Source: Octopus vulgaris (lineage: Eukaryota). Taken from it: a stretch of DNA of 64,000 bases. Positions 40,475 through 44,198 of this stretch are shown here, piece by piece. The notes beneath the pieces are model-generated. The model was not told the DNA's origin. It searched no databases and saw only the letters and a list, made by a program, of their open reading frames with translations. The DNA is taken from positions 40,982,001 to 41,046,000 of the forward strand of contig OX597833.1 of assembly GCA_951406725.2 (NCBI GenBank). Reading direction: 5' to 3'. The translations under genes were made by a program, and so were the position numbers. Positions within the stretch are counted from its first letter, which is position 1; every line of letters starts with the position of its first letter.

Positions 40475-40670
40475 TACCGGTGGCGATTTTTTTCCTCCGT
40501 CTTCCCTTCCTTGGATCTTTCCTTTTCCTATGTTTCTGACGAAGAGCTCCGCTCGAAACGTTAAAGCCTCCTTCTTTCTTTCCTTTCCTGAGCGTCCAAT
40601 AACACTATACTTGTTCCACGTCCTCGCGTTATTGTGTTTTTCTTTGTGTTTTCATGTTTGGAGTAACTTT
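40475..40670 (+). mobile_element. Short hammerhead-bearing element, family C1, 3' end at (TA)n
   Basis: Three copies in the window (40475, 40992, and 44005 on minus). Motif UUU, CUGACGA, A, GAGC ucc GCUC, GAAA, CG, UU, AAA at 40532-40566. Confidence 0.8.
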
Positions 40671-40991
40671 ATATATATATATACACTTTCTATGCTTATG
40701 GTTGAGTTAAATTGTTTTACATATATATATATATATATATATATATATATACACTTTCTATGCTTATGGTTGAGTTAAATTGTTTTATTCATTTATTCGA
40801 AGTGGAAGCCGTTTATCACACCGTTTTTCAGGCTTTGATAAAACGAGAAGAGCAAAACTTGGAGTTGTGTCGAAAAGCAGCTTCATCGAATACATATATG
40901 TGTGTGTGTGTGTGTGTGTGTGTGTGTGTGTGTGTGTGTGTGTGTGTGAGTGTGTGTGTGTGTGTGTGTGTGTGTGTGTGTGTGTATGTGC

Positions 40992-41183
40992 ATCGTTGGC
41001 GACTTTTTTCCTCCGTCTTCCCTTCCATGGATCTTTCCTTTTCCTATGTTTCTGACGAAGAGCTCCGCTCGAAACATTAAACCATCCTTCTTTCTTTCCT
41101 TTCCTGAGCGTCCAATAACACTATACTTGTTCCACGTCCTCGCGTTGTTGTGTTTTCCATTTGTTTTCATGTTTGGATTAACT
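40992..41183 (+). mobile_element. Family C1 copy 2
   Basis: Highly similar to 40475-40670; motif at 41048-41082 with stem I GUUU/AAAC; ends at (TA)n. Confidence 0.8.
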
Positions 41184-41480
41184 ATATATATATATATATA
41201 TATATATATATATAGTGTAATAAATAAAATATATGCATACATACAAACATATATGTACGTACCTACATCTACATGTATATACATGCATATATATATATAT
41301 ATATATATATATATATATATATATATATATATATATACTATATCTTTTGAGTACTGTAGTCCCGTTTTCGTTTTTACATCCAAAAGCATATGTCTGTGGG
41401 TATGAGTATTCTTTCAATACATTCAGTAATGAATTGAAAGGCATAGAAGAAATCGACCCCACAAGCTGCTATTACACTCC

Positions 41481-41942
41481 TTTTACTCTCTTTTACTCTT
41501 TTACTTGTTTCAGTCATTTGACGGTGGCCATGCTGGAGCACCGCCTTTTAGTCGAGGAAATCGACCCCAGGACTTATTCTTTGTAAGCGTAGTACTTATT
41601 CTATCGGTCTCTTTCGCCGAACCGCTAATTATACGGGGACGTAAACACACCAGCATCGGTTGTCAAGTGATGTTGGGGTGGGGGACAAACACAGATACAC
41701 AAACATATAGACATACACATGCATACATACATATATAAACATATATATATATATATATATATATATATATACATATATACGACGGCCTTCTTTCAGTTTC
41801 CGTCTAACAAATACACTCACAAGGCTTTGGTCGGCCCGAGGCTATAGTAGAAGACACTTGCCCAAGGTGCCACGCAGTGGGACTGAACCCGGAACCATAT
41901 GGTTCGTAAGCAAGCTACTTACCACACAGCCACTCCTACGCC
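41481..41942 (-). mobile_element. SINE family B
   Basis: Collinear reverse complement of 16387-16796, with a (ttttactc)n tail. Confidence 0.9.
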
Positions 41943-43201
41943 TTTTTTTTTTTTTTTGTAGTTAGTACGATATGATTTTACGGAGAAGTAAACAAACCAG
42001 AAAGGCTGTCCGGGAGAGAGGCGGGGACAACCACAGAAAGCACTGACACCCACGCTTATATACATATATACATAAGAGATACATCCATGACGGGCTTTCA
42101 CACAGTTTCCGACACAAGAGATTGGTCGACTCAGGGCTATATTAAAAAAACAAAAAACACTTGCTCCGGGTGCCGCGTAGTGGAACTGAAACCGAATACA
42201 CGTTGCTTGAAAAGCGAGATTCATAACCACACATCTATGGCTTTACATACATACATACATACATACATACATACATAAATACATTTACACTTAAAATATT
42301 TAAATATATTTATATATTATATATATATATATACATATATACACACACAATTTATTTATATACACATGTGTGTCTGTGTGCGTGTGTGCATATATGTATA
42401 TATATATATATATATATATATATATATATATATATATATATATATAATAATGCATATATTCATTAATCTGTATATTGTATCATGTTTCCCGGTAGATTTA
42501 ATCTATTTCCTATACATAATTATAATTATATATGCACACATAATTATATTACGTACGTAAGCTACCCCACAAATATATGCGCATGTGTGCTTTCATGCCT
42601 GTGTGTGTCTGTGCGTCTGTGCGTCTGTGCGTCTATGTGTGTGTGTGTGCTCGCGCGCGCGTTTGTCTGTGTGTGTGTGCGTGTGTGTGTGTGTGCGTGT
42701 GTGTGTGTGTGCGTGTGTGTGTGTGTGCGTGTGTGTGCAAACTTAATTCGGTATTTAATCAGTACACTGCGATTGATAATGAAATATATTTGAGTATATT
42801 AAACGTAATTGTAAGTGTCGAAAAGCGGGAAAATGAAACTTTCAACAGCACAAAATCAGTCTTAATTGTTCTTATATATATATATATATATATATATACA
42901 TGCACACACTCACTCACACATACACATACATCCATGCATGCATGCATATATGTATATTATTTTTATACATGAATGTTGTTGAGTGAGACTTCAAAGTTTC
43001 GGCCAGCTAAGTCGTCGTTGTACTCAACAAAGGTATAGAGTAACCCACCAGATTAATGTAAAATTTATTTTTATTATAACTAAACAATAAATCAATATAT
43101 GATATATATATATATATATATATATATATATATATATATATATATATATATATATATATATATATAGAGAGAGAGAGAGAGAGAGAGAGAGAGAGAGAGA
43201 G

Positions 43202-43633
43202 AGCAATAAGGAAATGGAAGGAATCAATAGGTGGTTCATCAACTTTTAGATATTATATTATGTCAACTAATTTATTTATTTACTAAAATGACAATTACAA
43301 GAATATACATACATGTATAACATATGCCTTACATATAAAATATATTAACATATAAAGATACCAGTAATTATTAAAATATAACATACAGGAGTATATAAAG
43401 ATACTAATAATTATCAAAATATAACATGTAGGAATATATACTCCTGTATGTTATACTTTAATAATTACTGGTATCTTTATATATTTATATATTTTATATG
43501 TAATGTATAATATGTTATACATGTATGTATATTCCTGTAATTGTCATTTTAGTAAATAAATAAATAAGTTGACTTAATATAATATCTAAAAGTTGATGAA
43601 CCACCTATTGATCCCTTCTATTTTCTTATTGCT
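43202..43633. repeat. ~195-bp-arm AT-rich inverted repeat starting at a (TA)n(GA)n tract
   Basis: agcaataaggaaatggaaggaatcaataggtggttcatcaac...acaggagtatata versus tatatactcctgt...gttgatgaaccacctattgatcccttctattttcttattgct. Confidence 0.9.
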
Positions 43634-44004
43634 ATATAAATTAATGGTAAAATATCTCTTTACCTTCACCCATTTAGTACCCTCGGTAATGAAATTGCAA
43701 TGTAATAAAAACACTTGTGTATTAATAATTGGGTATTCTACCAGTAGTATATTGGATAGATATTATCCCTTAGTTGGTTGGATTCACAACCTCTAACTTT
43801 CTTGGAAATATATATATATATAATTCATTAGGGTAACGGCATCCAGTGAAAATTATACTGTAACTATGGATAACATCAGGTAGCCCAAACGGTGAATGTG
43901 CTGTAAACAGCATACCAATAGATTCATATACCCAAAGTCCAAGTACTTATATATATATATATATATATAATTACATGGACTTTATATATATATATATATA
44001 TATA

Positions 44005-44198
44005 AAGTTAATCCAAACATGAAAACACAAAGAGAAAACACAACAACGCGAGGACGTGGAACAAATATAGTATTATTGGACGCTCAAGAAGGAAGGGAAG
44101 AAGGAGGGTTTAACTTTTCGAGTGGAGCTCTTCGTCAGAAACATAGGAAAAGGAAAGATCCAGAAAAGGGAAGACGGAGGGAAAAATCGCCAACGGTA
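44005..44198 (-). mobile_element. Family C1 copy 3
   Basis: Reverse complement of the C1 sequence; motif at 44108-44142; 3' end at (TA)n. Confidence 0.8.

Follow-up and report, generated by a model that had tools for sequence, protein, structure and literature searches.

A 64,000-nucleotide (nt) stretch of Octopus vulgaris DNA from contig OX597833.1 (the window; the term denotes the whole stretch) holds seven related short repeats, grouped in the families C1, C2 and C3. They are very probably short 3'-terminal, or pseudo-long terminal repeat (pseudo-LTR), pieces or nonautonomous derivatives of Penelope-like elements (PLEs), either inserted into (TA)n or with (TA)n as their tail, all of them with a hammerhead of the minimal hammerhead ribozyme (min-HHR) type. 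The motif is real. The feature for which it had been singled out in an earlier reading of the bare letters (here, the sequence-only reading), namely, a loop-less palindromic helix III with cleavage as a dimer, was already described and assayed in 2014, and as posed it is nothing new. More unusual than the ACGU palindrome are the variants of the catalytic core, A6U, U4C and G3-C8. This abundant clan of repeats holds canonical, U4C and A6U cores on one ACGU scaffold, with a G3-C8 motif in the neighbourhood, and forms a test set for asking if PLE hammerheads need to cleave at all and if a weak core can be rescued in trans.

Seven dispersed repeats share a hammerhead motif

The window is AT rich (35% GC) and rich in microsatellites. 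Local BLAST and alignment identified seven related elements in it: three of C1, two of C2 and two of C3 (the family names are the labels of the sequence-only reading). The C1 copies are 91 to 93% identical to C1a, the likeness between families is approximately 72 to 77%, and all are dispersed repeats of approximately 150 to 245 nt with (TA)n at the end of each. C1a (plus strand, 40453 to 40670, the end being approximate) has (TA)n on both sides and is the longest C1 copy in the window. C1b (plus, 40987 to 41198) is shorter at its 5' end and 93% identical to C1a, and C1c lies on the minus strand at 43991 to 44198. C2a (plus) spans 4893 to 5137 and C2b (minus) 57277 to 57507; for C3a (plus, 5361 to 5511) and C3b (minus, 59387 to 59537), the coordinates are those of the parts that align with one another.

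The C1a hammerhead occupies 40532 to 40566 and consists of the 5' strand of stem I (40532 to 40535), CUGACGA (40536 to 40542), an extra A (40543), stem II (40544 to 40554), GAA (40555 to 40557), ACGU (40558 to 40561), U17 (40562) and the 3' strand of stem I (40563 to 40566). Cleavage is predicted between 40562 and 40563, and the outer stem I pair (40566) is a G.G mismatch private to this copy. The corresponding hammerheads lie at 41048 to 41082 (C1b), 44108 to 44142 (C1c), 4970 to 5005 (C2a), 57409 to 57444 (C2b), 5375 to 5410 (C3a) and 59488 to 59523 (C3b). The layout common to all seven copies is U-U-U, CUG(A/U)(C/U)GA, an extra A, stem II GAGC/GCUC, GAA, a 4-nt word, H17 and AA(A/G). The extra A between A9 and stem II is present in 7/7 copies. 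Stem II has a single mismatch in each of C1c and C3a, and its closing pair, G10.1-C11.1, is present in six copies and broken in C3a. Stem I (type I topology) has 3 to 5 base pairs (bp) in every copy, with 27 of 28 cells paired, and its outer pair is G-C in C1b and C1c versus C-G in C2a and C3, which is one two-sided change.

The families differ in the core. The box is CUGACGA in all three C1 copies, while A6 is replaced by U in all four C2 and C3 copies (4977, 5382, 57437 and 59516), giving, for example, CUGUCGA in C2a and CUGUUGA in C3a. C2 and C3 depart from CUGANGA at A6 and are therefore best called core variants rather than consensus members; the sequence-only reading noted neither this change nor the private C1a mismatch at 40566. 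GAAA followed by a palindromic 15.2-16.2 and UH, without a loop 3, was found in five of the seven copies. That reading was correct that ACGU-H is intact in these five and mutated in two C1 copies: the word lies at 40558 to 40561, 4997 to 5000 and 5402 to 5405 on the plus strand and, on the minus strand, comes after GAA in the copies at 57420 and 59499, being ACGU-A in all C2 and C3 copies. The deviant words are ACAU in C1b (41074 to 41077, a CpG transition) and AAGU in C1c (minus strand, core nucleotide C3 at 44138).

A literature-style descriptor matched three copies in its strict form (CUGANGA) and six when U4C and A6U were allowed, against means of 0 and 0.005, respectively, in 200 dinucleotide shuffles; C3a was missed because of its stem II mismatch. 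Since the seven copies share one ancestor, this amounts to about one independent event, not seven, and the covariation count on the seven rows is not significant alone (matched in 66 of 500 shuffles). Given this common ancestry, the real evidence is that the core has outlasted its flanks. Between C1a and C2a, 29 of 33 positions are identical in the core, versus 28 of 44 upstream and 53 of 93 downstream.

It is hardly credible that the likeness to a hammerhead is accidental, the elements being, for example, tRNA-derived short interspersed nuclear elements with the B-box-like word GGCTCGAAAC, which we take to resemble an RNA polymerase III B-box on the other strand. An Rfam scan of the whole window returned no matches, and hence no hammerhead family at gathering score, which speaks for an accident. 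Against it, the full descriptor is essentially never encountered in shuffles, the published PLE min-HHRs include a nearly identical motif, the Acropora digitifera row (PMC4209133), and the same core follows the ends of GIY-YIG open reading frames (ORFs) in the metagenome loci described below.

A GAG(C/A)G block (40591 to 40595 and its equivalents), approximately 35 to 55 nt downstream of core nucleotide C3, is kept in all three families despite the drift of the flanks. As an alternative 5' strand of stem II, the downstream GAGCG was predicted to pair at approximately 0.4 to 0.5 in C1 and approximately 0 in C2 and C3; it is thus not a conserved switch.

The loop-less palindromic helix III is the published minimal form

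Cervera and De la Peña (2014; PMC4209133) reasoned that a dimer can do without helix III and loop 3 and defined the min-HHR accordingly, its marks being an extra nucleotide, G10.1-C11.1 and a palindromic 15.2-16.2. The octopus motifs resemble the min-HHRs of PLE pseudo-LTRs in that paper in their type I topology, lack of a helix III loop, palindromic 15.2-16.2, extra nucleotide between 9 and 10.1, and G10.1-C11.1, and also in their short helix I, U-rich 5' side and mostly dispersed single copies. C1 shows the whole set (U-rich 5' side, short helix I, CUGANGA-H, G10.1-C11.1, palindromic 15.2-16.2 and UH) and is nearly identical to the Acropora digitifera (Neptune) row of Fig. S3 in PMC4209133. 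Helix II of the C copies, at 4 bp, stands at the short end of the published range. Unlike the published rows, C2 and C3 have A6U and about a third to half of the C1 depth has U4C; unlike the min-HHRs of PLEs, the C1 to C3 families have no demonstrated linked ORF.

The sequence-only reading had regarded this version as shorter than the usual form. Instead, it corresponds to the published definition and to the commonest row in Fig. S3 (PMC4209133). By our own tally from the extracted figure text, in which the GAAA column is separate, helix III has 4 nt in 41 of 56 rows and reads ACGU-H in 29 of 56 (15 U, 13 C and 1 A), with 15 of the 29 reading ACGU-U, as in C1. What had been taken as the norm is the amphibian tetraloop hammerhead. 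Newt satellite 2, axolotl HHR_Amex1 and the non-LTR retrozymes likewise form a strand-swapped dimer through a palindromic helix III, but in these a single base pair is combined with a palindromic tetraloop, the loop 1-loop 2 contacts are canonical and the units are arranged head to tail (PMC7229834).

The claim that a 2-nt loop cannot close within one molecule is supported by established RNA geometry, and the proposed pairing of ACGU with ACGU between two molecules is the accepted mechanism for the class (PMC4209133), a review (PMC6765202) giving the same account of dimer cleavage. By analogy with that class, dimer cleavage is probably the right mechanism for the C motifs as well, and it is already published. 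A single RNA would be unable to close helix III, and strands would be exchanged between a pair of RNAs or between a pair of repeats within a tandem master transcript. A15.1-C-G-U16.1 would then pair with the same word of the partner as a 4-bp helix, stem I would also form between the partners, and each core would cut the partner RNA after H17. Such cleavage, which would be slow and probably aided by protein, would trim the retrotransposition RNA. In the assay of the S. mansoni min-HHR, the monomer was inactive and the dimer and trimer were weakly active (PMC4209133).

Swapped dimers computed for C2a/C2a, C3b/C3b and C2a/C3b are nested and free of mismatches, at -13 to -14 kcal/mol in a nearest-neighbour model that ignores tertiary contacts of the core. 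Rescue of the monomer through a second ACGU-C at approximately 40618 was rejected by eye; no partner for stem I follows this word, which C2 and C3 lack. Judging by its title and a citing review, a paper by Lünse, Weinberg and Breaker (RNA Biol 14:1499) reportedly deals with small PLE hammerhead variants that have an extremely short palindromic stem III and cleave as dimers.

ACGU is the consensus of a very large C1 family

Four public sequencing runs were aligned to positions 40385 to 40672 at 85% likeness. In three runs, 20,390, 12,117 and 5,235 contigs aligned to C1a; the fourth, of raw reads, gave 5 reads only, all less than 90% alike, and was uninformative. The percentages that follow are depth weighted, contig depth is not copy number, and the figures are those of the positions listed, which leave out differences below 2%. 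Contig depth over C1a begins at approximately 40445, preceded by loose ends of TA repeat.

ACGU-U is the consensus of a very large C1 family in the three runs, and the check on conservation of ACGU that the sequence-only reading had proposed was thereby passed. C15.2 of the palindrome differs in 3.5, 3.3 and 1.4% of depth and G16.2 in 4.6, 4.5 and 1.7%, all by CpG transitions. Four other CpG sites in C1 differ in 1.1 to 9.0% of depth, and nearby subfamily sites differ in 34 to 77%. The palindrome changes at rates within the range of the other CpGs, which makes ACGU the master sequence and ACAU a product of ordinary decay. These decay rates give no sign that the palindrome is specially protected once inserted. 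In approximately 99% of depth, position 40566 is C or U, giving G-C or G.U in stem I, and thus C1a itself is the mutant there.

The C1a and C1b copies are probably coincidental neighbours

The two plus-strand C1 copies lie exactly 516 nt apart, from core C3 to core C3, as the sequence-only reading stated. That the two make a working dimer, as that reading seemed to imply, is not supported, and the pair is probably not a working tandem but two coincidental neighbours. A cis-dimer of C1a and C1b in one transcript has in its favour that the copies are on the same strand, 93% identical and close together, and that one of the two possible cores could form despite one mismatch. We nevertheless consider it very improbable. 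The spacer (40684 to 40986) lies outside the element and is made up of TA and GT microsatellites, a local duplication of 50 nt and sequence that matches nothing else in the window; it is unrelated to the repeats, C1b is shorter at its 5' end, and the upstream flanks of the two copies differ. The ACGU/ACAU duplex was computed at +0.9 kcal/mol, versus -1.7 kcal/mol for ACGU/ACGU, and the swapped C1a/C1b dimer, with two mismatches, at +1.2 kcal/mol, versus -25.1 kcal/mol for competing folds. In a joint transcript, the probability of the dimer pairing is approximately 0. Both mismatches are minority alleles of the family. The working partner would instead be a tandem master elsewhere, and the seven copies are most likely passive, decaying insertions.

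The link to Penelope-like elements is indirect

Metagenomes were scanned with a pattern that comprised the core, stem II and ACGU only, and it matched at least 120 loci (L001 to L120). Although H17 and stem I stood outside the pattern, H17 is never G among the 120 matches listed (0/120), and stem I has at least 3 bp in 83 of them, as would be expected of a ribozyme. A single family, similar to the Acropora row, accounts for nearly all of the loci: 117 of the 120 listed align with another. In 19 of the 120 (several being duplicates), the end of a GIY-YIG-type ORF in the sense orientation lies 50 to 200 nt upstream. The flanks of these linked loci do not align significantly with C1 to C3, and what they show is therefore the attachment of this motif class to such ORFs, not descent. 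For C1 to C3, the link to Penelope elements is an indirect one. Three of the 120 matches listed (L070 and L039/L095) fail to align with any of the others; L070, in which a different, fully paired stem I (GUCC/GGAC) is combined with the same core, is probably an independent family with ACGU-U.

The window also contains pieces of PLEs, neither of which is joined to a C copy. A PLE reverse transcriptase (RT) fragment at 54075 to 54491 (minus strand) is approximately 50% identical to proteins with RT and GIY-YIG, with E values down to 7e-34, and ends at a long (TA)n; the single named homologue for a retroelement fragment of the window is from Argonauta. At 17665 to 17796 (plus) lies what is probably the C terminus of a PLE GIY-YIG domain (E value of 0.009, a weak match). 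Approximately 130 nt past its stop, at 17954 (plus), comes a decayed hammerhead-like motif whose stem II has 9 bp and whose helix III is damaged; together the two span 17665 to 18002. Pfam analysis of six window ORFs gave no family, a tblastn search of nine RT homologues against the 120 metagenome matches listed gave nothing at 1e-4, and a scan of viral contigs for the C motif gave no matches. Craig et al. (PMC8557442) note that PLEs target microsatellites and that hammerhead function in PLEs is unclear.

Inverted duplications occur upstream of the endonuclease tail, at approximately 17190 to 17650. Others, at 53270 to 53330 and 18096 to 18350, adjoin (TA)n and resemble the inverted pseudo-LTR arrangement of PLEs.

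Several results weigh against an origin of the C elements from PLEs with cleaving hammerheads. A recognizable PLE ORF is present upstream of none of the seven C copies in the window, and nothing in the window matches the metagenome endonuclease. The linked metagenome ORF itself scores 19 bits for Pfam GIY-YIG, below the curated cutoff of 22.6, and five of the nine RT homologues gave no Pfam family. In comparisons of the C-family flanks with the endonuclease-linked family, 1 of 20 gave a P value of 0.007 and the rest at least 0.1, which is not significant. To these are added the empty Rfam scan; the computed energies of the perfect homodimers (-13 to -14 kcal/mol), which lie well above those of competing folds (-24 to -38 kcal/mol), so that the predicted ground state is a fold other than the dimer; and, for C2 and C3, the absence of A6U from the 56 published Fig. 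S3 rows (PMC4209133), together with the fact that a change at A6 (A6C) is known to reduce activity.

A different parentage, in which the elements descend as monomers from non-LTR retrozymes (hammerhead repeats arranged in tandem and spreading via small circular RNAs), seems to us quite unlikely. The unit of approximately 150 to 245 nt, the type I hammerhead and the lack of an ORF are as expected of retrozymes; dispersed monomers are common in retrozyme families, which a 2026 preprint proposes to derive from PLE pseudo-LTRs; and C2a and C2b have one 5' start in common. However, no head-to-tail unit occurs among the seven copies (within the window), and the spacer between C1a and C1b is unrelated. 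The retrozymes of a 2020 study carry canonical loop 1-loop 2 hammerheads, the minimal ones being assigned to PLEs (PMC7229834). The C copies, with 3 to 5 bp in helix I and no loop 3, differ from the canonical type I hammerhead, which has a 6-bp helix I and a looped helix III, and C1 depth declines toward the 5' end, as in truncated insertions.

Core variants A6U and U4C

The U4C change (window position 40537) accounts for 46, 34 and 47% of C1 depth in the three runs. It is also present in 56 of the 120 metagenome matches listed, which belong to a different family, and is a recurring polymorphism at a conserved catalytic position; it is found in none of the 56 published Fig. S3 rows. A natural PLE hammerhead with A6U was not found in the literature searched, most subscription papers being outside the search, and within the same limits a search of the hammerhead literature on octopus found nothing on the C1 to C3 families. 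U4C and A6C each lower activity in vitro, and U4C still supports viroid infectivity (PMC3088659). Because changes at A6 and U4 lower activity, the spread of the A6U and U4C lineages calls for an explanation.

One explanation is that the motif was kept as an RNA signal, for pairing or as a site for a PLE protein, with catalysis weak or dispensable at least in C2 and C3. A6U is present in 4/4 C2 and C3 copies and U4C in 34 to 47% of C1 depth, yet these lineages were amplified, and the related changes depress activity in vitro, as just noted. The authors of the 2014 study leave room for non-cleavage roles (PMC4209133), and Naiad PLEs have spread without canonical hammerheads (PMC8557442). We regard this as unlikely, since the UH site, GAAA, C3-G8 and the extra nucleotide are all retained, H17 is never G in the 120 metagenome matches listed, and viroid infectivity survives U4C.

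In a strand-swapped dimer, the core of one RNA cuts the other RNA, so weak-core lineages could serve as substrates only. We think it improbable, but lineages with A6U or U4C and an untouched ACGU-H may be riders that are cut in trans by a partner family with an intact core. If so, the shared 4-nt palindrome would be a pairing code across families; alternatively, cleavage would be dispensable and the motif a pairing or protein-binding signal. Either outcome would bear on what PLE hammerheads do.

Other hammerhead-like motifs in the window

The sequence-only reading had also listed further families whose words in the place of ACGU are self-complementary or nearly so. The motifs with ACUCGGAGU and AAUAUU fit a hammerhead; ACUCGGAGU is an imperfect palindrome, and the motif with ACGAUCGU has no CUGANGA-like box. 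The ACUCGGAGU-A element (plus strand, 55299 to 55343, core at 55307) is TA flanked and separate, with CCGACGA (U4C) and a 3-bp stem II that has a GGAA loop. As a monomer, ACUCGGAGU could close 3 bp with a 3-nt loop, so this motif need not dimerize. The ACGAUCGU motif at 17617 (minus) was not accepted as a hammerhead, as it lacks that box.

A TA-flanked element of similar build at approximately 33990 to 34175 (minus) has CUGAUGA at 34130 and is possibly a decayed relative of the C elements. The motif at 34130 was not accepted as a hammerhead, having no convincing stems.

The AAUAUU motif (plus, 50245 to 50295, core at 50252) has GUGAACA, in which C3-G8 is swapped to G3-C8, an extra G, a 5-bp stem II, the palindromic AAUAUU-U and a 7-bp stem I. 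It was accepted as a hammerhead despite the absence of CUGANGA because covariation at C3-G8 was allowed. Engineered hammerheads with a G3-C8 core are active (PMC3884650). The G3-C8 motif had no matches in viral contigs, and no natural G3-C8 PLE hammerhead was found in the literature searched, which left out most subscription papers. By chance, stems as long as those of the AAUAUU motif occur 0.05 times per shuffled window. An inverted copy (minus, core at 50224) forms with the motif at 50252 one inverted duplication that adjoins (TA)n.

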